Of a stretch of 64,000 nucleotides of DNA, positions 652 to 44,289 are shown piece by piece. Location of the stretch: assembly GCA_030295235.1 (NCBI GenBank), contig AP026128.1:434001-498000 (forward strand), read 5' to 3'. A program made the translations under genes and the position numbers. The notes beneath the pieces were generated by a model, which saw only the letters and a program-made list of their open reading frames with translations, searched no databases and had not been told where the DNA came from. The DNA comes from Fistulifera solaris. Lineage: Eukaryota. Numbering within the stretch: position 1 is the first letter of the stretch; each line of letters starts with the position of its first letter.

Positions 652-3600
652 ATGACTGTCGCCCCAGAACAATCCCGTGTGGAGGAATCTTCCCCCAATG
701 ATCAAGGACCCCGCGACGACGTCTCGCGCATGTCCGATGTCTCGACGACCAGTCGCGCTTCCGCCATTTCCCGTCTGTCACATGATATTGCATGTGTTCT
801 GTCTCAGTCTTTGTGTATATTGAAAGGAGAAAGTCCGATCGTCGAAGAGAATGATGAGAGTGAAATCCCGCTGCAAGTCACGACTTCCTGCGGCGGTGTC
901 GACGAAAGTCCCTTGACCGACGCGTTGAGTCCTCAGAGCGCTGAGGAGCCATTTCACAAACGCGACAACGGAACGAATGAAAATGCTGCAGAAGGAATCA
1001 ATTTTCTCAAAGATCTTCCGAACGAAATGACGTGGGGTCGACGTCTTGCTTTATTTTGTATGAAACGATATCCTTGGTATAATCCGCGTTTACGTCCGCA
1101 AAAAGAAGAACCGACTGATGAATCCCCACTTTTTGATAATCTTCCACGAGAAACCTTTCATGCGTATCCCTTTGATATCAGTCGGCGTGAGAATCCGAGC
1201 TTGGAGAAAGCGTGGGCGTACTTTGAACACGTGACGCTTTCACGGTACGTTGTTCCTCCCGAAGATCAAAACAAGACGAAGAAGAGTCTTTTGGTACGAA
1301 TCTTTCGACGGCTGTTTTGTAAAGGTGGACAACAGCTGCGACGAGCCGAGCCGGGGGAGAAAGACTTTCCCACTCGTTTGTACAAACCCATTTTTACGCC
1401 CCCATGCGCAGCTGGGAGACTTTGGTTTGGGCTTGGGAATGTACTTTTCGACGCTTCGAGCACTCACGGTGATGACACTCATCGCTGGACTACTGAATCT
1501 GCCCAATATCCTTTACTTTGTGAGTGATGACTACAATGTAGCAACGAACCAGAAGGAAAATGTCAATTCTTGGTTTGTCCAAGGATCAGCAATCTGTGTC
1601 GATACCACATGGGTACCTTGTACCGACTGCAACGGGACGCTCTCGGATTCTCGGGTCTTGCAAGCTACGAATGGGACCAAAGAAATTACTTTTGCGTTGA
1701 AAAACAACTGTGATGGTGCAATCGAACAAGTGGCTTTTATCAACTTGGCAACATTGGCTCTGATCTTCTTCGGAACGATCGGTCTCAATCTGTATCTGCG
1801 ACGGATGGAGATTATATACGATGAGGATGAACAGACAGCACAAGACTATTCTATTGTTGTTCAGAACCCTCCAGGCGATGCCACCAGTCCCGAAGAGTGG
1901 TTCAAGTTCTTTCACGAAAGTTTCGATGGGGCACACATGACTGCCTGCACGATCGCTGTGGATAACGACTTGTTGGTTCGATCGCTGGTGGAACGACGAG
2001 AACTTCTTCGTAGAATCGAGATGATGGTCGATCCTGGAACATCTCTGGATACGCTCACGCTGGCGCGAATCGCAGCGAAGGAGGCGAGAAAGCGTCGCTG
2101 GTGGGCTCGCTGGAAGGCGATGCTCGTCAAGGGGATTCCTGAATTATTTGGAAGAGTGGTTGTACTGAATGCGCTGGTGCAAGGCTTGGCTCAACAAGAA
2201 TACCCCGCAACCAAAGTCTTTTGCACTTTTGAGACAGAAGACGATCAGCGGAAAGTTCTAGCAGCCTTGAGTTATGGGGACTGGCAAGTCTCACGACAGA
2301 ACAAAGCTGCTGCAAGAGACCCCCGCCATCTATTTCGCGGTGAGCACCTTCTATCAGTACGCGAAGCGGAAGAACCGAACACGATCCGATGGCAAGACTT
2401 GAACGAGAAGCTCCGAACAATGTTGAAACAGCAAGCTCTCACAATTTTTGCGACGATATGTGCAATTCTCGCCATCGCCTTCATCATTCGTGTCACAAAT
2501 GACTCGAGTGTTGTTTTTGCGGCGATCGCTATCTCTGTATTCAACAGTGTATTTCCTGTGTTCGCGAAACTGCTAACAGGGCTAGAAGCTCATTCCTCGG
2601 AAGGCGGTAAACAGCGCAGTCTCTACTTCAAAATTGCCTTATTTCGTTGGGTGAATACTGCTATTGTCATTACAATTATTACGCCATTTACCGATACTGT
2701 TGCAAGTGGAGGATTGATTGATCAGATCTACGCTTTATTCTTTGCCGAAATTGTTACGACCAACGCCATTCAGCTGGCAGATCCTATCGGGCATATTCAG
2801 AGACACTTTTTTGCCCCTCGCGCGGCAACGCAAGACGCAATGAATATCAATATGCAAGGTCAAGTGTTCGAACTAGCTGAGCGGTATACGAACATGACAA
2901 AGATACTGTTCTTGGCATTATGGTACTCGGCCATCTATCCCGCCGCCCTTTTCCTTTGCTCATTCTCCCTTTTGGTCAACTACTTTACTGATCGATTTAG
3001 TTTGATGCGGACTTGGAGGCGACCGCCTCACCTTGGAACGAAAATCTCACAGTTCAGTCGGCGATACTTCTTTTCCCTAGCGTTGGTTGCTATGGCTCTC
3101 TTGTCGTCCTACTACTGGTCGGCATTCCCTTTCGACAACTTGTGTGTCGATGCGACGATCGCCAATAATCAATACGCTGGTCAGTGGAGTTTTATTCAAA
3201 GCGACGGCACACTAAACGGAACCCAATCCGTTCAGCTGGATGATCCTCTGTACAAGTACTGTCTGCAAGACTTCTTCCGGTACCCTAAGGAAGAGTTGTC
3301 GTTTCCCTTCATTTCCCAAATGCAACCGGAGGATAGCAAATGGATGACGGAAGAACAAGAATTGATTGCTGATATTTTCGGCTGGACATCGGTTGGTGTA
3401 CTAGGATTGATCTTCTTGTCTTTCGTATGGGGGTGGCTCAAAGCAATCGTACACTACTTTCAAGGAAACTACATTCCAGTAGGGGAGAGCCAGAACATTC
3501 CGTTCAGTGAAGTCCCCTCCATCAGCTCGTATATCCCACAAGTGGAATCATCGGTCTTTTCCTATCCTCTACTAGCCTGCAATGTGGATGGCATCGATCA

Positions 3601-8200: not shown

Positions 8201-11200
8201 CCTTTCAGGGCATCACAAACAACAGTCAGTAGCCTGGGCACCCTCGACTCTAAGGTCTCAGAGGATAGTTTTTGAAAAGCTTTACCATCGCCAAAACGAT
8301 AGAAGGACGAAGAGTCTTGCTCTTGTTTCCCTTGCCATCAACAACATCCTTGGTCAAAAGTTCTTCCAGTTTTGGTAATATTCGATTATTGAGGGCCCGC
8401 TGAACTGCATTCTGCAATTCAGTACTATCGTTGGAATCCTTAACAGCCGTAGAGAAATGAAACGCGTCCAGAAGCGAACAAATCACCCCGATCAAATACG
8501 TTTCTTGATTGGGATGGCGTTGAAATTGATTTAAAGTAGTCCAAAGAACCTCGTTATACTTGCTCCACGATAAATGCTGTGCTAAAGCACCAACAGTAGC
8601 CACCCCTTCTAACGCAAGGGCACTATCCACTTTCGACGCGGCTTCGTATGCAGGGTGCATCGCAATTGGAAGAAGAATATGAGATAGAGACTGGGCTGTA
8701 AAGCAACATGCACCGTCATCATTTACAAGGTCTTTTCTTAGTCGTTGAAACGCTTTGGCACGACGGTGTATCTGGACGTGAGTAATTGCGAGAAAAAAGT
8801 CTAAGTCGGGCTCGTCATCCCTGATCAACTGTACCAAGTCACCGTGCAAATTAGCTGAAGATAACCCGACAGCCAAGCCAGCAAGTTCCCTGATGAGAAG
8901 AATAAAAACTTTCTCACCGCAGCATTTTGTGAAGCAACTCCCGCTCTACAGTGCGGAACAATGCAACCTTCAAGTAGTTTTTGAAATTTCTCGCACGCCG
9001 AAGTTTTCACCATATCAATCGAAATCTCAACAAGTGTTTTGAGCGCCCGAAACGATGTTCGAGCAACAACACCGTCTTCACAGTAAAGATGAAGGAAGCA
9101 GCAATTTACCACGGGAAGGATCAGAAACGGGGCGCTCCCATCGTCTGTCTTGTATAAATTATTCCACGAAACTGGGCTTTCTACGTCACTAAGGGCAGAA
9201 AGAGTCAGAATTACAGTCTCTGCATCAGTCTCGTCAACCCGCTTCTCGTTCAGTTTATTCAAGCTGACAAGAACCTCAGCAGCTGGCTTGGCAGCTTGAC
9301 ACAATCCGCTTGTTAATGACACAACTAGATGTGCCATGTTCAATCGAAGGCCTTTCGACATAGTCCCAACACCCCCTTTTGAAGGTCCAAAAACTTTAGC
9401 TAGTTCCTGATAGTGCTTTTCTGCTGTCTCCTTTGACAAAACTTCGCTAAACCGTTTCAATATCGACACGATATTCTCCTTTGCATCGTTAGAGCATCTA
9501 GAGCCATGAGAAAGATAAGGCGTAAGCAGCACACAAATTCTTTCTCCAATCTCAGTCAGCTTGTCCTGATCAGAATCAAATTCAATCAATTCGCTAACTC
9601 GGCACAAAACTTTTAACTCGCGAAACCAATAAGCCTTTCTGTTTTCCATACTGCTGTCGTTGAGTCTTGCTTGAAATCTTGTGAGCAGCATTACCGCACG
9701 CTTTTCAACAAGTGCAACTCCTTTTCGTCATCGCATAACAAGTTTTCAATAAAAGAGAGGCAGTTATCAATTGTCGAAGCACTGCTTGCTGCGTCAATGC
9801 AATCAATAACAGCTTGAATAGCATAGTCGTGGCGTTCTAACAACACAATCATATTAGACTGTGAGGAAATCGTTTTGAGAAGACCCAGCAATGCAGGTGC
9901 TTTATCTGCAATCACACCCATCCTCGGAAGAATTCGAAGCGCTTTATCTAGTGTTCTCCAAATATTCTCTGAGAAGCACAAGAAATCAATACTTTCGTAA
10001 TACGAGTGAAAAATATCGCCAAGTCGCCGATAGCAGAGAGCCCTAATTTGTCCGGTTTTTTCTATGGGTTTTGTTTCAACCTCTTCCTCGTTCCAATTAG
10101 CAAGGTCGCTTTCTTCATGATGAAGTTCAGCGTTTTGCTCAATACTGATATCTCCAATTTCGTGAAGGCTGCACACTTTTAAGACAAGAGTGACAAAAAG
10201 CGGAATGAACGGTCTAACGCCTTGGCCAAAATGGGTAATAACAGCACCCAATGTATTTAGAAAACCCTGATGCACCGGAATCGGTAAATGCTCAAATACT
10301 GAAAGCGACAACGATTCAACCTGATCTTGTAAGGCAAGAATGTCTTTCTCTTCTTGTAACCCGCTCACCAGGTTTGTTTCCCACTCTAAAACATATGGGC
10401 GTATCATGAGATTGACAAAAATAAATCGCTCCTCGAACGTCCGACACATCGAAGATAAAAAAGACATGATAGCGTTTCTTCGTGCTCCAGGAGAATCTTT
10501 AGATGATCCTGACGTTGCTTTAGCTGACAATCTTCCAAATAGAATTCGCGATAAACATGCCAAAAGGTCAGCCCTATGCTCTGTCGCAATGTTACCATCT
10601 TCATCTGCCGACCTAAGCTCGAGTAGGCCTTCTCGAAGTTTTCCTTTAGACAATAGTTTTCGAAGATTTTCAGCATATGGTGACAAAGCCGGAGGCTTAA
10701 AGCGCAGAATGCAAGACAAGGCAAGGTCTGCAATCGCGTAATCAGGATGACCCACAAGTTTCGAGTGTACCGAATAAAGTAGTTCGTGTTTAACAAGCTG
10801 CTGGGGCCCTCGCACTACCGCCAAAGCTTTTAGAATTAGCTTTAAGTGGCTCACAACGGCGTGTCGGTCAAAAGATAGCGTGCCTTTAACGACGCTGCAA
10901 CAACGGTAGTGAGCGGAAAAATTTTATCACGATGAAAAACATAGTCGTCGGTGTAACTTACTTTTTCGCTGCTACATGATCAGAAAGTTTGAGCTCTCTA
11001 GCATCAGGATCTCGCGGAGAGATGGCAAAGTACTGAAGATGCAAGAACTCTATTACCAACGGTATCAATTCTCTTGAATGCTGAATCCAAAGGTCAGGAT
11101 ACTCTTCGAAAATACCCCACAAGGATTGCAGTACGGTTAAGTTATCTGTTCTCGAGTGCCGTGACACATTACCTGTGTCTGAAGCAAATTTCGTAGTTGC

Positions 11201-21640: not shown

Positions 21641-21918
21641 TTTTTACTATAGTCCCAAAGTCTTGTCCGTTTTTCACCAAGACTGGTTTCAGTAAGTAAA
21701 AAGAAAAGGCTATAACTCGCTCTTGTAATCCTTCCATTCCCAACAGCATCTTCTTTCTATCTCAAAACATACTTTGGCTATTGAGTTACATGAACTTATC
21801 ATTTCCAATGCCCAGCTTGATCATTGATGATGAAAACATGGTGGAATAGTTCACTTCACATATTTACTATACCAGGTAATCCCAAAGTGTGATCCGTTTT
21901 CACCAAGACTGGTTTCAG
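21641..21918 (+). repeat. Pair of dispersed-family repeat copies (21641-21693 and 21862-21918)
   Basis: Both contain tttactata...cccaaagt...tccgtttt(t)caccaagactggtttcag; offset 226. Confidence 0.8.
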
Positions 21919-21980
21919 ACACGAGAAAACCGTCCATTTCTGACCTTCACCCGTCACCGCGTGAAATAAAGAGCGACAGC

Positions 21981-22522
21981 TATTGATGGTAACCTCTAGA
22001 TGATGATAAGGTGATCTCAATTATTATGAGCTACGAGGTTGCTATCGAATGGTCGCTCCGAATACTGGTGGATGCCGTGATCCGAGAGGGTTACGGGTTG
22101 GTCGGTTGACGTACAGAAACTGGCAAACCACCACGTACGGAACGGATAGCACCAGCATTTGCATACACTTGCCGTTTCAGGATGCGCAAAGTATATGAAG
22201 TGGGGCGTCCGGGGATGACATCCAGAGCCCTGTTGGGAAACTGGGGGAAATTGGGGTCGATGGTGGACATTGCACTAGTGGCAACAACGACGACACAACT
22301 CACGGATTGACGACTGTTGTCGGTGAATCAATTCGAGAGAGATAAAGGAAAGAAAAAGATAATTGAGATCTATTGATGGTAACCTCTAGATGATGATAAG
22401 GTGATCTCAATTATTATGAGCTACGAGGTTGCTATCGAATGGTCGCTCCGAATACTGGTGGATGCCGTGATCCGAGAGGGTTACGGGTTGGTCGGTTGAC
22501 GTACAGAAACTGGCAAACAACA
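21981..22522 (-). mobile_element. Internally deleted LTR retrotransposon (copia/CoDi-like): 5' LTR 22522-22371, PBS 22370-22359, gag stub from 22270, 3' LTR 22128-21981
   Basis: 148 bp identical direct repeats; minus-strand termini TGTTG...CAATA; 5-bp TSD ACAGC at 21976-21980 and 22523-22527; MSTIDPNFPQFPNRALDVIPGRPTSYTLRILKRQVYANAGAIRSVRGG resembles diatom copia Gag N-termini. Confidence 0.88.
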
Positions 22523-22591
22523 ACAGCCTCTCCTCTTGCAGGCATTGCTTCGATCTAACACTGCTGAAGTAATAGACCATTGCTTGCCATC

Positions 22592-23985
22592 ATGTTAACT
22601 TGCGAACTATCTGGAGAAGTAATTGTCGAAGGAGGCGTGGTGACGCCCTCCGGTCATGTTTGCAGCCGTCGAATCTTGCTGCAAAAATTTCAAGAGAACG
22701 GTGGATTGGACCCTTTCACCCAAGCACCGCTGTCGGAAGATGATCTCATTGAACTCAAAACCAGCACCAACGTTCCACCACGAACAGCTGCGTCATTTCC
22801 ATCCATATTAAAGCATTTACAAGAAGAGTATGACGCCGTCTTGTTGGAGTTGATCGACACACGGGCGGCCTTGCAAGAAACGCGCCAAGAGTTGTCGACG
22901 GCCTTGTATCAAAATGATGCGGCGATTCGAGTTATTGCCCGACTTTCCGCGGAACGGGATGCTGCGCGGAATACACAAATGGAACAACCACCACCGGAAA
23001 AGAAACGAAAGGTTGCGGCGGCTATCGAGTCGCAGAATTTGTCGGAAAAAGATCTGCAAGAGATGCAGGACGTCTGGGAGTCACTCAAATCGACACGAAA
23101 AGCTCGACAGAAGGAAGCAAGTGATAAAGCGTGGAGTCCTGAACAGCATGCAGCTCTGCAAGTCTCTCAACAAAGCATGACGTTGGAATCGCCCACTAGT
23201 TTGGCTGTATCGGCATCATCAATAGTCGGGTGCAGTCATAAGCAGTTGCTGCTTTACGACGCTCAACAGCACAAAGTGATTGCTTCGGTGGATGCGAGCT
23301 TGTCAACGGTCGATATCGATTCAAAGCACATTGCTGGAGGCTCCGACTCGGGGCTTTTGTCGATTTGGTTGTACCAAGAAGGTATCAAACTGGCGCATTC
23401 TGTTTCGGTAGATCAAGCCATTGTGCATGTCCAGCTTCATCCCAATCAGACGCACGTCATTGTTACAACACAGGATGGTGTGATTCGCATCTTTCGAATC
23501 GAAGAATCGGTTCCGCTGGTGGGAGTCTACAAAAACGAAGGGGCTACTCTTACAACCGGTGCGCTGCACCCGGATGGTTTGATCTACATTGTAGGGACGA
23601 CTACGGGAACGTTGGCTATTTGGGATCTCAAAAACCAAGTTCTTGCTGGAACGATGGGCGGGGGGTCACCGGTCGTGGATGTTGTTTTTCCAACAATGGA
23701 TATCACATAGCGGCAGCGCACGAAAACGGCGTGATTGTCATTTGGGATTTGCGAAAACAGAAAGAGGTGACTCGGTTAGAGACACCCGGTGTTTCCTCCG
23801 TGTGTTTTGATGCTACTGGGAAGTTTCTAGTGTATGGGAAAAAGGAAGGGGTTTCGATTACCGCTGTCAAGCAGTGGGATAAAAAGGTCACTATTCCGTG
23901 TCCGGGGGTAGAAAGAATAGTCTGGAGTGAAGATTGGTTGGTCGTATCGACGCCTTCGGGAGTCCAATTTGTTGCACCCTCTTAA
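22592..23985 (+). CDS. PRP19: Pre-mRNA processing factor 19 (U-box, coiled coil, WD40); frameshift near 23690
   Basis: MLTCELSGE...TPSGHV U-box, LQEEYDAVLLE...TRQELSTALYQNDAAIRVIARL, LHPDGLI, FSNNGYH, IWDLRK. Confidence 0.92.
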
Positions 23986-25713: not shown

Positions 25714-26175
25714 CATTATTTTCTGGACACGTAAAATACAACTGGTCCAGATTTTCTGGACCAGTGTTATTAATACCACACTCCCAGATTTCCTGGGAAC
25801 GTGGAAAATACAACTGGTCCAGATTTTCTGGAGCAGTGTAAATATCAAACCCCAGATTTCCTGGGAACGTGAAAATACAACTGGTCCAGATTTTCTGGAC
25901 CAGTGTTATTAATACCACACTCCCAATTTTTCTGGGAACGTGAGAATTACAATTGGTCCAGATTTTCTGGACCAATGTAAATATCAAACTCCCAGATTTT
26001 CTGGGAACGTGAAAATACAACTGGTCCAGATTTTCTGGACCATTGTAAATATCAAACACCCAGATTTCCTGGGAACGTCAAAGTACAACTGGTCCAGATT
26101 TTCTGGACCAGCGTAAATACCACCAACCCACATTTTCTGGATACGTGAAAACCACTTCTCCACATTTTCTGGACG
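25714..26175. repeat. Tandem array of 67-72 bp dimers, each carrying two palindromes
   Basis: GGTCCAGA-TTT-TCTGGA(C/G)C at 25744, 25816, 25883, 25955, 26023, 26091 alternating with CCCAGA-TTT-YCTGGGAACGT; degenerate at both ends. Confidence 0.95.
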
Positions 26176-33900: not shown

Positions 33901-36900
33901 AGCGATCGCTGCTGCGCGTTGTCAACATTGAGAACATCCTTTGGTGGTGTTGAGCTAGCTCTTTGGGATGTCAAGGGTAAGCTCTCTCTTCTTCGAATCT
34001 TCATAGACCAAGGAAAAGATATGTACTTGGGTGTCTCTTTCAAGTTGTATGAGGGATTTCAGCTTTGTGAACAGCCATCTCTTGTAAGGGGATATTCATG
34101 TGCTCTGTTTGCGACGATGACAAATAGCGACGAAGGCCTTGGGAAATCTATCGTTGTCTATTCGTGCACATCGCATTCCTCAGGTCAGAAAGACGAAACG
34201 CAGTTCACGTCGCAGGAGATTAGGGTCGGCTCCGATTCTAAAGACGATCGGATAGTTGACTTTTGCTTCCTTTCGTCTGGTTATTTGGCGTTAGCACCGA
34301 TTCTCGTTGTCTTTTCGTTCACAGGGGTAATTGTTTATCGGAAAAGCCTGTGCTCATCGGAATGGGAACCGTCTCTGAAAATTTGGTACACGAAATTCAA
34401 AGATTCAAGCCCGTATCTCAATTCTACGGTTGATCTTGCTCTTTATGAGTTCGTTCCAGGAATCTCGATGAACGATTTGTTCCCTCATCTTCTGTCTGGC
34501 TTATCATTGACGCACAAAGCTAAAGACGAAGAAAATTGTCTATTGAATGATTGGAGCCCTGAATCTCTTCTTGCTTACATATGTTGTGAAGGTAAAGGGA
34601 TTAATCACGCGCTTCAGTCTTATGTGCCCGATATAGTGCGTTGGATTCATTCGCAATGCAAAAGTTCGGGGCATGAATTTCTGGTTAAGGCGCTTCCGTG
34701 CGCTTCAATCGACATCTGTAAGAAACTGAATCTTCTCAACGGTGATCACGAAAAAACGGCATTGCAATCCACCGTTGACCATCGTAACACCGGACGCAAC
34801 GACACGCTTGAAGATTTTTTTACAAGACATTTTAACTACCTTGGACGAGAAATGCCAGGTCGATCGGAAGGGTAGAAACGTCACAAACGACGCAGCACCT
34901 TCGAAAGTTGATAAAGGGCCAAATCCAAGACCGCGTTTAGAGTTTGACATGCGAATTTTCCATGCTATTAGTCAGCTTGCACTTGCACCCCCAAATTTCC
35001 AAGCGACTGATTCGTGTGGTGAGCTTTTTCTTTTGCTGCTTTTTTAATGCAGCAATTAGAAGAAGATGCAGACAACAAGCGCGAAGTATACAACGACTCA
35101 GAAAATGCGGTGAATGACATTACTCGACTGTCGCGCAAGGAGAATTCGACAGATTTTCACGTAGCATCGTCTGCTTGTCTAGCTGCTATGATCAGTGTAG
35201 ACCAAGAAATTCTTCTTGAGCGATGTCGACCATTAGGACAGAAGCTGAACTGGGATAACGCAAGAAAGCTCCGCATTCCTTTTTGGTTGCGATCGGACAA
35301 AGCTTTGGCAAAAGTTTGCGAGGAAATTGGGCAAACATCGTTTCGAGAAGGCAGAGATGTCATGGAATGTGCAATTTTCTTCATTGCCTGTGGTAAGCTT
35401 CGGACATTAACAAATCTTGCAGCAACTGATCAAAGCGAAATGGGTAAAAAATTTCATAAATTTCTCACGTCCCACGACTTCGAAAGCACAAAAGGCCGTC
35501 TTGCAGCTGAAAAGAATGCCTTTAGTCTGCTACGGAAAAACAAGCATCGTGCCGCTGCATCATTTTTTCTTCTTTCAAAACCTCCGTCTCTAAAATCAGC
35601 AGTGGAGACCATCCTGACTAAACTTAACGACATCGATCTAGCCTTCCTTGTCATGAGGCTCATGACAAATAGTTACGAATGCAAGGATACTAGTCCGTCA
35701 CTTCTATCACTTGGAGGAGGATATGCGGCCGCTGGCGCTTATAAAGTCGGAGTTTCAGACCAAAAAGAAAATCAGGAGCCTGACTTTCAAGAGTGGTGCT
35801 CAGGATTGAGCATCACTGCAAGAAATTTTCTGGTTGATCGATTGTTACCGATGACAGTGGAAGATAGTGCTTTAACGTCCGTGATACTTTATTGGTTAAA
35901 CGAAAAGACCTTTCTCCTTGGATTCTTTCCAAGACCGTGGGTATTGCTTTCGATAAGCAAGGGGGGCATTCCATTTTCAAAAAGGACACCATGGAGTGGA
36001 TACCATCAGGATCATTACCGCGATCTTGCTTGATAAGGAATGTCGACGTTGTTGCAAGATCAAATCGAATCATTGATATCGTGTCTAGACCGACACTACT
36101 GCTGCATCTGAAATCACCAGACAAACCTCTGTTCGCCGCCGTATTGTCCACATCTTCGACTTTGTTAGCAAGCGGGCTTGAATTAACAGCGCTACAAACC
36201 TTGTCAAAAGTCTCTCATCACATGCGGAATGAAGAAAAGAAGATTGCCGAAAGTCTTTCCAGCACTATGAAAGACATAAGTAAAGCTCCACAGAGAACTT
36301 CTTTTCTCAATGCTCCGTATTCCTCCGGTGCGATGGAGTCTTCAATTTTTGATGATTTCGCTGGTCCGCCAAAGCAAATCCAACAATCAAACCATTCTGT
36401 ATCTGGTGCGATGGAGTCATCCATTTTCGATGATTTCGCTGTCCCGCCAAAGCAAATTCAACAACCAATTCGTTCTACATCTGGTGCAATGGAATCATCG
36501 ATTTTCGACGATTTCGCTGGTCCGCCAAAGCAAATTCAACAATCAAACCATTCTGCATCTGTTGCGATGGAATCATCGATTTTCGACGATTTCGCTGGTC
36601 CGCCAAAGCAAATCCAACAATCAAACCATTCTGTATCTGGTGCGATGGAGTCATCCATTTTCGATGATTTCGCTGTCCCGCCAAAGGAAACTCAACAACC
36701 AATTCATTCTACATCTGGTGCGATGGAATCATCGATTTTCGACGATTTCGCTGGTCCGCCAAAGCTAATCCAACAATCAAACCATTCTACATCTGGTGCG
36801 ATGAAGTCATCCATTTTTGATGATTTTGTGGTTCCAACAATGCTGGTCGGCGGGACCTCTGCGTCTTTTCCGGGATCGACAAAGTTCAGCATGTTTCGCA

Positions 36901-39900
36901 ACAACAGGCTTCTTGTGGCAATAAAAATATACCTGAAATAGAGTTGCAACTGCATCTTTCAATCGAGCCTTCGCAGTCCCCCCAGATTTGGAACGAACTA
37001 GTGAGCGAGTTAAAATGTACGGGTGCCGCTAGAAGACGTAAGTTGTTCTTATGCAAAGTGAAATGCAGTGGGCTTGATTTCTCATCCTTTATTTGCAGTC
37101 CTTCGAGAAATTGCAAGAGTTTTTGATAGCTGCCAGATCGATCCAACAGAGTTTCCAATTGATCTTCTCGACAAGCAGAGTATACTTATGCCCGAGGTCT
37201 CAAGCGTTCTTCAGCTTCCTAGTGACGGAGAATCAATGCTAGCACAAGCCGAAGAGATATTGACTGACATTTCAAAGTGGTCTCAAATTGACTCGAGCTA
37301 CGTCATTCAGCGCGCTCTTTCAATTATCGAAGCTGCTGATAAGAACCGTCTTGTCTTCGAAGTCGTTTTATACTGCATATGCGGGCGAATGGATCTAGCC
37401 GAGTTGGCGGTGCGAGTAGCGTCGAGGGGCCAGATAGAGAGATGCTTTTCATTGGTGCGCAGTACTGACACGGGCAATCAAAAACGCAGTCCCGATTCCG
37501 ATTGTCCTCGCGAGTCCTACGTCGTAAGGCAGCGAGAATCAGCTGGCAGCTCGAGTTGTGCCTTTGGCTACATAGGGGCGATAGCTTTCCTCTCTCTCCT
37601 TTAGGCATTAAGGAGACTATCTGTGCGGTTCGACTTGGGCTGCTGATCGCAAGCTGGAACCATGACTATGCAAGCATACAAGCGCTAGTCGAAAATCCAC
37701 CGGATTGTCCCCTTGATGAAAACACTGGACGCTTATTGTGGACAAGCTTATGCTACAAAGATTTTGAGAAACCTCTGGTCAAAGAAAAGGGAGGAACAAG
37801 CGGAGGATGGGAGTTTTTGGTAGACTGTAAGCGCTCGCAGGCTACCGACATGCTGAAAGACAGGCCCACTGGATGTTTCATTATTCGTCCACATACAAAA
37901 GATCATGGTGTGTTTACTTTAAGTTTCAAAACAAATTTAAAGCCAGTTAAGGAGGAAAAAAGAAGACGAAGGGGAAGCGAATGCAGAAAATCTTGGTGAT
38001 CAGCTGTCGGACCAAGAGACGAGTAACGTATTGACTGGGCAGGCGACTAAGTCGGCCAAGAAGAACGATGTCGTTCAGCACGCGATCATCCGACTCTCTG
38101 AATCTGGGTTTCGGTGTGGATCTTTTGGACCTTTTGCTTCCTTAATGAGTCTTCTAGAAGCAGTATCAGCATCGCTACCTTTCAAACTGCGTTTTGATAA
38201 GCCGCCAGCAAATCACCTAATTCTTGACGAAGGATCTCAAACATCCCCGAATGCGGTTTTATTCCACAAATTTGCAGCATTAGTAAAGGAGGATCATTCA
38301 CTTACGGATGAAATTTTTGTTGGCCCAGAAAATGCTTCCAGCACTTTGCAAAGCTCAGCGATATCAGGCAGGACGCACGTAAACGAGGCGGCACAATTAG
38401 ACAGAGTCAAAGTTTTTTCGAGTTTTTTAAATCTCATGAAAGTATTGTCGATGTGTCGTCAACTCACAAGTGTGGCAGCTGTTACGAGTGATAATGAATC
38501 AAAAACACTAGAATGCGTTGAAAATGAAACGGATTGGGACGTCAACGGTTGCAGACAGTATCAAGTGCTCGAAGCTCATCGAATACTTCATCCGTTCCTG
38601 TCATGGTGTCGAGCCGCTGAGATTCTTGTCCTGTCAGATTTCACGTCACATCCTTTCTGCACAATGAAACCCTCAGGAACTTCCGACGCTGTCGCTTCGG
38701 AGGAATCGCAAGAAGTTCAAGAAGTTGATCGGGACCTCAAAGGCGATGGGATGCTGAGGAAAATGATCCAGCAAGGTTCTGGGGTTGAGTTTTCGACTCT
38801 TCGACTTGTTGATGGCGGTGAATGCACGATGGTTGTGTTATTTAAAAGAAATGATGCTCTTGAATGGCTGGTTTCAGGCGGATACGACCAAAATGAAGTA
38901 GAGGCTGCTAATCGGCTAGCATCGATGGAAAATGCAAGATTTATTGAGCCAGTCGACTTGAGCAAGTTAAGACTCAAACACAAGGGCGCAGCAACAGAGG
39001 AAGTAGTAACATATCGCTTCATTGATCCTTGGGAGGTTGAGGCCCTTGAAAATCGCGACGCAGAAACTCGTGCTGCAACACTTGGACGCAGCAAAGTTCT
39101 TGGTTTTAGTTTGAAAAGAGTTTCTTTTGCTTTGGATCCACTCCTCTTGGCAATTGGAGGAGCTCCGCTGCTTGATCTGTGGAATAGCTTACAAGGGGGG
39201 AGTTATGTTGACCAAAGCGATTGCGTCTTTGCACCCTCCGTGGGAACGTGCAGCTGGGGGAGACTTGATTATCGGCAGTGAATCGTCTCAGTCCCCCTAC
39301 ATGAATAGTATTCGCAAGATGCTATACAGAGACTCGATCTTTCGAGCGCTACGGTTGCCCCAGCGTTTTATTACACTATTACAAGTGGAATTGCTGGACT
39401 TGAAAAATTTAACGTCGCCCGGTGGTTCACTCGCCTTGACTGTGTATGCATTGCTGCGACCCAAGCGAGCTGGCCATGGTGCGAACCTTACCAATAAGGC
39501 CCGCACACTCGATAGTGCCGCTACGCAGCCAGTTAAGCTGACAAAATCGACAGGACCGAATGCACCTGCGTCTTGGGGGAGTGTTGTCCGTTTCCGTTTT
39601 GGTCTTCCGGAAGACGTATCCATGGACGGCACGAGTAAAGATTCCGACCAAGAGAGTATATTTAAGGGCCCACCAACTTTCCTGCAATTGTCCGTGTACG
39701 AAAAGAAGCTATTGGTCGATCACTTACTTGGTTCTGCAGATGTTTCTATGGATGGTCTTTGGCCCGGAGGCCAACTGGAAGAGTGGGTACCACTTCGATC
39801 GGACAAAAGCAGCATTACATGGTTCGCCCGGATCCGGCTGACCCTCCGATTTGAATTGATGTGTTTAGCCGAGAAAGGGTCCGAGGCACCGGACCGGGAA

Positions 39901-42612: not shown

Positions 42613-44289
42613 AACGTGCACAAAATGCGCCTGTGACTCGAAGCACTAGGTCAAGAATTTCTAAACCAATCACACAGAATTTCTGTTCGACATAAAACCA
42701 CGGTTCACGGATTTTAGATTTTCTGGAATTGGCACAAAATGGCTGTAATACTCAAAACAATAATTCCAGACGATTGGGAACGCCCACAGCATTTCTGTTG
42801 GACGCAAAACACCAACATTAGCTTACCTGAAACGTGCACAAGATGCGTGTGTGACGACTCGAAGCACTAGGTCCAGAAATTCTGGACCAATCACACAGAA
42901 TTTCTGTTAGACATAAAACCACGGTTCACGGATTTTAGATTTTCTGGAATTGGCACAAAATGGCTGTAATACTCAAAACAATAATTCCAGAAGATTGGGA
43001 ACGTCCACAGCATTTCTGTTGGACGCAAAACACCAACATTAGCTTACCTGAAACGTGCACAAGATGCGTGTGTGACGACTTGAACCAACAGGTCCAGAAA
43101 TTCTGGACCAATCACACAGAATTTCTGTTCGACATAAAACCACGGTTCACGGATTTTAGATTTTCTGGAATTGGCACAAAATGGCTGTAATACTCAAAAC
43201 AATAATTCCAGACGATTGGGAACGCCCACAGCATTTCTGTTGGACGCAAAACACCAACATTAGCTTACCTGAAACGTGCACAAGATGCGCGTGTGACGAC
43301 TCGAAGCACTAGGTCCAGAAATTCTGGACCAATCACACAGAATTTCTGTTCGACATAAAACGACGGTTCACGGATTCCAGAATTAATGGAATTGACACAA
43401 AATGGTTGTAATACTCAAAACAATAATTCTAGAAGACTAGGAACGTCCACAGCATTTCTGTAGGACGCAAAACACCAACATTAGCTTACCTGAAACGTGC
43501 ACAAGATGCGTGTGTGACGACTCGAAGCACTAGGTCCAGAAATTCTGGACCAATCACACAGAATTTCTGTTAGACATAAAACCACGGTTCACGGATTTTA
43601 GATTTTCTGGAATTGGCACAAAATGGCTGTAATACTCAAAACAATAATTCCAGAAGATTGGGAACGTCCACAGCATTTCTGTTGGACGCAAAACACCAAC
43701 ATTAGCTTACCTGAAACGTGCACAAGATGCGTGTGTGACGACTTGAACCAACAGGTCCAGAAATTCTGGACCAATCACACACAATTTCTGTTAGACATAA
43801 AACCACGGTTCACGGATTCCAGAATTAATGGAATTGACACAAAATGGTTGTAATACTCAAAACAATAATTCTAGAAGATTAGGAACATCCACAGCAATTC
43901 TGTTGGACGCAAAGCACCAACATTAGCTTACCTGAAACGTGCACAAAATGCGCCTGTGACTCGAAGCACTAGGTCCAGAAATTCTGGACCAATCACACAG
44001 AATTTCTGTTCGACATAAAACCACGGTTCACGGATTCCAGAATTAATGGAATTGGCACAAAATGGCTGTAATACTCAAAACAATAATTCCAGAAGATTGG
44101 GAACGTCCACAGCATTTCTGTTGGACGCAAAACACCAACATTAGCTTACCTGAAACGTGCACAAGATGCGTGTGTGACGACTTGAACCAACAGGTCCAGA
44201 AATTCTGGACCAATCACACACAATTTCTGTTAGACATAAAACCACGGTTCACGGATTCCAGAATTAATGGAATTGGCACAAATGGCTGT
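42613..44289. repeat. Satellite array, about 7.6 copies of a 221-bp unit
   Basis: Units start (aacgtgcac) at 42613, 42831, 43052, 43273, 43494, 43715, 43936, 44154; periods 221, or 218 where a 3-nt deletion is present. Confidence 0.97.

Follow-up and report, generated by a model that had tools for sequence, protein, structure and literature searches.

The element described here lies on the minus strand of a 64,000-nucleotide stretch of Fistulifera solaris DNA (the window). Its neighbours are a CLC channel gene and a Prp19 gene whose ATG it precedes by about 65 bp. It is an internally deleted LTR element of 547 bp, made up of an LTR, a leader, 48 Gag codons and a second LTR, and is bounded by a 5-bp target duplication. 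Its features are listed in the order of the element's own strand, each with the evidence for it; P0002 is a 1611-aa Fistulifera solaris polyprotein, and numbers beginning with L denote related loci.

22523..22527, minus strand: 5' target-site duplication GCTGT; the same 5-mer stands on either flank.
22371..22522, minus strand: 5' LTR of 152 nt, TGTTG...CAATA; a direct repeat, with loose contig ends at 22522 and 22371.
22407..22520, minus strand: part of the LTR identical to the 3' coding terminus of the full-length polyprotein, with the stop TGA (22409-22407) within arm 1; its translation, LFASF...VAHNN and stop, is the P0002 C terminus.
22415..22420, minus strand: Inr-like motif CTCATA, a candidate transcription start region directly 5' of arm 1; YCATA(A) is kept in relatives.
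22403..22414, minus strand: arm 1, the putative self-primer ATAATTGAGATC; complementarity, and a homologous covarying arm in 45 related loci.
22382..22402, minus strand: ACCUU / GAGGU, a small hairpin inside the loop, immediately 3' of arm 1; it appears in the MFE fold.
22371..22375, minus strand: LTR terminus CAATA (family consensus CAAYA); kept directly before arm 2, and seen at LTR-flank junctions in L042, L043, L053 and L061.
22359..22370, minus strand: arm 2, the candidate primer-binding site (PBS) GATCTCAATTAT, offset 0 nt from the LTR; complementarity and covariation.
22271..22358, minus strand: 5' leader of 88 nt, between the PBS and the Gag ATG.
22127..22270, minus strand: Gag stub of 48 codons, MSTIDPNF...SVRGG; translation, 100% identical to P0002.
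21981..22126, minus strand: 3' LTR without its first ~6 nt, the junction with Gag lying at ~22127; repeat comparison and contigs of other copies.
22013..22024, minus strand: the copy of arm 1 in the 3' LTR; repeat search.
21976..21980, minus strand: 3' target-site duplication GCTGT; the same 5-mer stands on either flank.

The limits of the element can be read from contigs of three public runs: flanking sequence of other copies parts from the window at precisely 22522, 22371 and 21981. On the minus strand the 5' LTR terminates in ...CCATCAATA at 22371. The second LTR copy, compared over 22132-21981, differs from the 5' copy solely at LTR positions 1 and 4 (22132 and 22129), and a repeat search places the direct repeats of the element 390 nt apart. 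In the window the codons of the Gag stub run directly into this second LTR; other copies, in contigs from the same three runs, extend past 22127/22128 into Gag (...GAHGHLGVAM). One further contig links 21954 to 22567 with the element absent, representing the empty site. Taken together, the element-bearing and empty-site contigs and the full-length Gag continuations identify the window copy as an insertion that has suffered internal loss. By comparison with these copies, the missing part extends from Gag codon 49 through approximately nt 6 of the 3' LTR and includes pol and the polypurine tract, neither of which is left in the window copy itself. The window copy is a recent, internally deleted insertion whose 5'-side replication signals are intact. 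Its LTR also carries coding sequence: nt 3-113, when translated, give exactly the C terminus of P0002, so that in full-length copies the polyprotein frame enters the 3' LTR by 111 nt and stops at the TGA in arm 1.

An initial interpretation made from the DNA letters alone (the sequence-only reading) had likened the Gag stub to diatom Ty1/copia elements, and protein comparisons bear this out. The stub is 100% identical to the N terminus of P0002 and 93% identical to that of a 1585-aa paralogue, P0003, these two being the matches at E<=0.01 among 12 candidates. P0003 contains a copia-type reverse transcriptase (RVT_2, residues 1164-1354, E 9.8e-10), and an integrase SH3-like domain precedes the RT in all three proteins scanned (residues 731-776 in P0002), with scores that fall under the Pfam cut-off. 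Classification by INT/RT order, which the same reading had proposed, therefore points to copia. The copia-type RT, the integrase placed before it and the 5-bp duplication together make the element a member of Ty1/copia, and the TG...A termini of its LTRs and a polypurine-like tract seen in relatives are the further marks of that group found here. By these characters, the window element belongs to a Fistulifera solaris Ty1/copia family. The marks of the Tf1/sushi group (a gypsy-type RT, the order RT-RH-INT and a chromodomain) were not found: the RT is of copia type, the integrase precedes it and no chromodomain was observed in the family.

At the boundary between the 5' LTR and the leader, the minus strand reads ...GCTCATA ATAATTGAGATC ACCTTATCATCATCTAGAGGTTACCATCAATA GATCTCAATTAT CTTTTT... 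Positions 22370-22359, where a PBS would be expected, are a perfect 12-nt reverse complement of 22414-22403 in the LTR, with 32 nt between the arms (repeat search, 100%). Arm 1 begins 44 nt before the LTR end, and a TCA at 22419-22417 stands two bases upstream of it. The enclosed loop contains ACCT (22402-22399) and AGGT (22385-22382), which take part in an inner stem in the MFE fold. As RNA, 22417-22340 folds into the arm helix plus this inner stem of 5 bp, with an energy of -15.3 kcal/mol (z = -3.53) that 0 of 200 shuffles equal. These are the features from which the sequence-only reading had started (a 12-mer at the PBS position complementary to the element's own LTR, an initiator-like TCA just upstream and a small stem in the loop), and all of them proved to be present as described. 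In a published survey of priming, an element counts as self-priming when its 5' LTR contains 10 bp or more that can pair with sequence beginning 0-5 bp past the LTR (PMC6317226). In the window element, 12 of 12 nt are complementary at offset 0 and the PBS lacks TGG.

A match of this length within a single element could in principle be fortuitous. Allowing at most one mismatch, the 12-mer occurs three times in the 64 kb (at the PBS and once in each LTR) against 0.39 expected, and three or more occurrences were reached in 0 of 100 shuffles. The chance that the 12 nt following the LTR would find a perfect complement within it (141 positions, window base composition) is 1.2e-5, rising to 7.5e-5 when offsets of 0-5 nt are allowed. 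What speaks for coincidence is the AT-richness of the 12-mer and nothing else; against it stand the estimate of ~1e-5, the 100 shuffles and the recurrence of the pair in 45 related loci. We consider the probability of a chance match negligible, and reject it on the strength of the comparative results that follow: the pair in 32 of 32 loci with an intact junction, in 40 of 42 with a gag start, and covariation unmatched in 500 shuffles.

Relatives were sought with the INT-RT-RH part of P0002, which at E<=1e-10 retrieved 1309 related proteins among the 8000 candidates scored. The named close relatives all come from diatoms (Fistulifera, Cylindrotheca and Fragilaria); Cylindrotheca closterium and Fragilaria crotonensis are among the species that have such elements. 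An alignment of 32 relatives was then used to scan metagenome contigs, giving 628 matching stretches of which 509 were confirmed; the best 80 yielded 66 loci with 35-71% amino-acid identity. Terminal overlaps occur in 18 contigs and define a unit of 5.1-5.9 kb. These overlaps arise because the assembler collapses the two LTRs of an element into one, so that pol, LTR, PBS and gag become contiguous.

In relatives, a conserved PPT-like GGTGAGGG, itself belonging to the final conserved codons of pol, stands directly before the LTR start TGTTG. The TGTTG lies 60-165 nt upstream of arm 1, implying LTRs of approximately 120-205 nt, and together with the CAACA end it forms a terminal inverted repeat. 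Judged by these landmarks, the relatives show the canonical layout of PPT, LTR and PBS. In four loci the LTR is followed by unrelated sequence with no arm 2: L043 and L061, of the L044 family; L042, of the L023 family; and L053, of the L052/L056 family. In all four, identity ends exactly after CAAYA or CAGTA. LTR-flank junctions that lack arm 2 place arm 2 inside the element, at the PBS position, and make arm 1 part of the LTR. The LTR ends are thus fixed independently of the hairpin, by the 5-bp target-site duplication, the points at which contigs diverge and the four junctions in relatives.

The duplex recurs at the homologous place in 45 of the 66 related loci. Wherever a pol C terminus is followed by a gag N terminus within 1.5 kb, the longest perfect inverted repeat is the arm pair (32 of 32 loci, 9-13 nt, in a search that allowed arms up to 150 nt apart). 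Among the loci with a gag N-terminal match, 40 of 42 have the pair; of the two exceptions, L022 has just 90 nt of upstream sequence and L017 is without a 5' end, its hairpin being found behind pol. Beyond L017, the pair was also seen in L039, L046 and L052/L056, the last of these with one A.C mismatch, and L045 carries two mismatches beside the LTR end. As a null, 12 of 483 non-leader windows of 450 nt from the same loci reach at least 11 nt, several of the 12 being host-flank repeats, a microsatellite or the hairpins of L017, L039 and L046, which had not been flagged as leader. The surroundings are also conserved: YCATA(A) precedes arm 1 throughout the relatives, and the loop begins with ACC(T/G)TT in most of them and ends with CAAYA or a close variant, after which arm 2 follows immediately.

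The arms themselves vary together. The sequence-only reading had proposed asking whether LTR/PBS complementarity covaries across families, and the outcome, from 45 loci and the window with 34 distinct arm pairs, is positive. We aligned the window with 33 loci (MAFFT, 34 sequences), leaving out the near-duplicates L004, L008, L009 and L063 and the variant or degenerate loci L025, L045 and L050. In this alignment 96.8% of 404 cells pair, both sides have changed in 11 of the 12 pairs and 85 cells are double changes. The covariation score is 0.608, compared with 0.141 +/- 0.017 for shuffled alignments, and 0 of 500 shuffles score as high. Sliding the arms against each other by 1-3 columns lowers pairing to 26-38%, and RNAalifold independently predicts the identical 12-bp helix.

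A second, anchored count covers 46 hairpins with 34 distinct arm pairs and includes all seven loci omitted from the alignment. Taking as units cells and distinct arm pairs, that is, sequences and not evolutionary events, Watson-Crick pairing holds in 305 of 306 cells at pairs 1-9, where G-U is absent. It holds in 31 of 34 at pairs 10-11 and in 26 of 34 at pair 12, with a further two G-U; at pair 13 the figure drops to 9 of 34, a sharp end of pairing. These proportions carry a bias toward Watson-Crick cells because a perfect-match finder located the arms first, a bias that the MAFFT count and the use of the LTR terminus as an anchor partly counter. The modal contiguous helix is 12 bp and the modal loop 31 nt (range 19-61), and the first pair is C:G in 30 of the 34 arm pairs.

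The same variation bears on whether the PBS is instead bound by a host tRNA, tRNA half or tRNA fragment, with the LTR match being incidental (compare the internal tRNA-Met of copia and the plant lineages Bianca and Osser). Such priming would call for a host tRNA or fragment with AUAAUUGAGAUC and for family-specific matches to the other arms. Half-tRNA priming does occur in Ty1/copia (PMC6317226). In the diatom-type elements, arm 2 varies between families at nearly all positions, all 34 distinct arm sequences are complementary to their own LTR and, as the sequence-only reading had noted for the window, none begins with TGG. A PBS that differs so much between families and lacks TGG could not be served across the clade by a single host tRNA. 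A shared tRNA primer is therefore excluded on comparative grounds, and we regard tRNA priming in any of these forms as highly improbable. A search with ARAGORN detected no tRNA genes, either in the window or in 60 of the 66 loci, a result that says little as these loci contain little host DNA, and Rfam gave 0 matches at E<=1 across 21800-22700.

We therefore favour tRNA-independent self-priming, as the sequence-only reading had suggested, a proposal that covariation across relatives now supports. From the duplex, its position at sequence-defined LTR ends, its conservation and its covariation, all of which are observed, we infer the transcript start, the RNase H cut and priming itself: in this family, and in a large clade of diatom-type copia elements, reverse transcription probably starts by Tf1-like self-priming. 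Transcription would begin in the LTR at arm 1, or a few bases upstream of it, beside YCATA(A). With the remainder of R-U5 looped out (~31 nt), the first ~12 nt of the RNA would then fold back onto the 12 nt directly after the LTR and pair there. RNase H would cut behind the C that closes arm 1 on its 3' side and is nearly invariant (C|ACC), leaving a free 3' OH, from which RT could extend the primer across ~32 nt of R-U5 to give minus-strand strong-stop DNA. Later, plus-strand synthesis would copy the retained primer, so that the PBS would be re-templated in every cycle. Copying of the PBS from the primer each cycle would explain the strictly Watson-Crick arms; near-absent G-U and an abrupt end at 12 bp fit a copied primer better than an RNA stem under folding selection alone.

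Some details sit less easily with this mechanism. The conserved Inr-like CA sits 2-5 nt upstream of the first paired base and not at the first base of the duplex, so a start at the Inr-like A would leave a short unpaired 5' tail, unlike in Tf1. With R and U5 together spanning just 44 nt, R would be very short for strand transfer, at most 44 nt. An inner stem starting at loop nt 1-3 is found in 16 of 36 loops, a subgroup of relatives in which the stems are individually not significant, and the third duplex of the Tf1-type pretzel was not seen in the 36 loops examined. If contig starts are read as stand-ins for transcript starts, arm 1 is not the beginning of any contig; L004 comes closest, starting 12 nt upstream.

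The architecture of this region is compact. Approximately 70 nt would pack together the start-site motif, the self-primer, the whole of R-U5 (~44 nt) and the PBS, and in some families the polyprotein stop as well. We considered a pol stop inside arm 1 as a conserved feature and rejected it: with the pol frame of relatives taken as the longest open frame, its end falls no more than 12 nt from arm 1 in 13 of 33 sequences and far upstream in the rest.

Two other arrangements would also use the duplex. First, the hairpin spanning LTR and leader could be conserved as an RNA or DNA structure that serves a different purpose (for example packaging, dimerisation, control of translation or termination), with priming carried out by something else. 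Covariation demonstrates pairing and not priming; fungal GalEa copia elements also have, where the PBS would be, a conserved hairpin of unknown role (PMC5445492); and the Tf1 pretzel is not reproduced in diatom-type loops. Against this, no locus has arm 2 anywhere but exactly at the PBS position, conservation does not extend into the columns beyond it and so offers no alternative conserved PBS, and near-zero G-U with a sharp end at 12 bp would be unusual for a purely structural stem. On balance we think another role for the hairpin unlikely.

Second, arm 1 might be part of U3, the transcript starting further downstream. In that case the partner of the PBS would be the copy of arm 1 close to the 3' end of the same or a co-packaged RNA, giving a circularised genome primed from the 3' LTR copy. 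Arm 1 does occur in both LTRs, and in the window family the polyprotein frame crosses the LTR to arm 1, so that the stretch upstream of it is certainly transcribed in the 3' LTR. This arrangement is at odds with the conserved Inr-like YCATA(A) directly upstream of arm 1, where a start would be expected, and a start downstream of arm 1 would leave R under 32 nt, for which we know of no precedent. We judge it quite improbable, and retain self-priming from the 5' end of the transcript as the preferred explanation.

How new this is depends on what is compared. The sequence-only reading knew of no comparable description for diatom copia elements, and that part stands: full-text searches with few subscription journals covered turned up no account of a PBS or of priming for diatom copia elements, and the main text of the paper on CoDi elements is silent on priming ('tRNA' appears 0 times and 'PBS' once, as a buffer; PMC2806351). 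Its implied breadth does not stand, as Ty1/copia precedents in plants (Houba, Osr-1 and the TAR lineage) make the novelty smaller than had been assumed. The principle of self-priming is already known; judged from these comparisons, the novelty is in the lineage and in how strong the comparative evidence is. So far as is known, proof of self-priming is confined to Tf1-type gypsy elements, with predictions for a few plant and fungal lineages.

If confirmed, these results would extend tRNA-independent self-priming to Ty1/copia elements of stramenopiles, and in a clade that is large: of the 8000 candidates scored, 1309 are related polyproteins, and 509 stretches of metagenome were confirmed. It is conceivable, and we offer the idea tentatively, that self-priming arose here independently of Tf1/sushi and of plant TAR, in a minimal, one-hairpin form within a diatom-wide and environmentally abundant copia clade. 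The consequences would be several. First, annotation pipelines that seek tRNA-type PBSs would miss or misjudge such diatom elements. Second, host control through 3'-tRNA fragments that target the PBS would not apply to them. Third, the 34 natural arm variants provide a ready compensatory-mutation series for studying how RT/RNase H recognizes a self-primer. Finally, the clade bears on the published idea of early LTR elements primed by hairpins (PMC3601003). If self-priming is ancestral in diatom-specific copia lineages, this would support tRNA priming as a later development in LTR-retrotransposon evolution.

Among known systems, the likeness to Tf1 and Tf2 of Schizosaccharomyces pombe, and to the Tf1/sushi group, is one of layout: the PBS directly follows the 5' LTR and complements the element's own LTR, over 11 nt in Tf1 and ~12 here, with no tRNA complementarity (PMC7175516, PMC10085805). 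For Tf1 it is experimentally established that the first 11 bases pair with the PBS and that RNase H cuts between bases 11 and 12 (PMC7175516). The two systems differ in their proteins and in their RNA. Tf1/sushi elements are Ty3/gypsy chromoviruses, whereas those described here have a copia RT with the integrase before it. The primer region of Tf1 forms a three-duplex 'pretzel' (PMC10085805); in the diatom-type elements it would be one 12-bp helix over a ~31-nt loop, with R and U5 spanning 44 nt.

Other systems share single features. The CoDi elements are diatom Ty1/copia with short LTRs, and CoDi4.4 has LTRs of 153 bp against 152 bp here (PMC2806351); in host and LTR length the window element would be compatible with a place among the CoDi groups. 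Some CoDi families have only one stop, or none, between gag and pol (Maumus et al. 2009, PMC2806351). Fungal GalEa elements, likewise copia, lack a tRNA-type PBS and have a conserved structure in its place; this structure is a 9-bp local palindrome for which its authors found no LTR (U5) partner, whereas here the partner lies in the LTR, 19-61 nt away (PMC5445492). The YCATA(A) motif of the diatom-type elements resembles a stramenopile Inr, YCAYTYY, described for oomycetes (PMC3599244).

Counterparts within Ty1/copia itself are found in plants. Self-priming has been proposed for the copia elements Houba and Osr-1 and predicted for the whole TAR lineage (PMC6317226). Like them, the window element is a Ty1/copia element with the complementarity that this survey takes as its criterion (PMC6317226). 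They differ in host, land plants in one case and diatoms in the other, and in kind of evidence: for the diatom clade, covariation across 34 arm variants is added to complementarity.

The internally deleted Ty1/copia copy lies close to a host gene, and a second version of its insertion site can be recognized. One contig from a public run links position 21954 directly to 22567. The 612 nt that it skips exceed the combined length of the element and its target-site duplication by ~60 nt. This joint is an empty site lacking the element, representing an allele or the other subgenome. A Prp19 (U-box/WD40) gene, oriented opposite to the element, has its ATG ~65 bp from the insertion (22522-22594 of the window). 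This places the element upstream of that ATG, within the Prp19 promoter or 5' UTR. Elsewhere, the window carries three tandem repeat arrays:

25733-26148, tandem array of 34/68-nt units, upstream of a myosin gene
36246-36947, tandem array with a 78-nt period, inside an ORF
42635-44257, tandem array of 7 copies with a 221-nt period

On the minus strand, the polyprotein frame covers ~111 nt of the LTR (22407-22520), and its stop lies inside arm 1, the putative self-primer. Among 33 sequences, 13 have an inferred pol frame that stops no more than 12 nt from arm 1, and in the others it stops far upstream; overlap between pol and the LTR is therefore specific to certain families rather than conserved. 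Close to the end of pol, two related metagenome loci, L062 (1536-1567) and L066 (922-953), have in common a perfect 11-bp hairpin with a 10-nt loop.

Eighteen metagenome contigs (L001, L002, L004, L005, L008 and 13 others) have ends that overlap, with a unit of 5.1-5.9 kb; for L008, 3.9 kb is repeated. Such contigs are most simply read as assemblies in which the two LTRs have collapsed, although one-LTR circles or tandem arrays are possible sources of the same terminal overlaps. The host flank of another locus, L048, features dense clusters of a TTGACCAAATTGG-like 10-13-nt motif in direct and inverted copies (3197-3341 and 9577-9835).

A relative labelled as bacterial also emerged from the polyprotein search. 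P0016 (1075 aa), assigned to Marinobacter shengliensis, shares 53% identity with the diatom copia polyprotein; its probable source is a eukaryotic contig that contaminates the bacterial assembly. Of the two F. solaris polyproteins, P0002 is missing two segments found in P0003: one lies in the integrase region (~30 aa), the other in the reverse transcriptase (RT; ~40 aa), where it includes the VVDDF motif. In keeping with this gap, a domain scan of P0002 gave no match to the copia-type RT domain RVT_2. The cause is either a defect in this copy or a gene model that removed the segments as introns.

In at least eight related loci (L002, L004, L012, L016, L017, L019, L031 and L040), a single in-frame stop codon separates a gag of ~400 aa from a pol of ~1300-1400 aa, as in this example:

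L004, 97-5422, gag, stop codon and pol

This arrangement suggests readthrough. P0002 of F. solaris is encoded as one fused frame.
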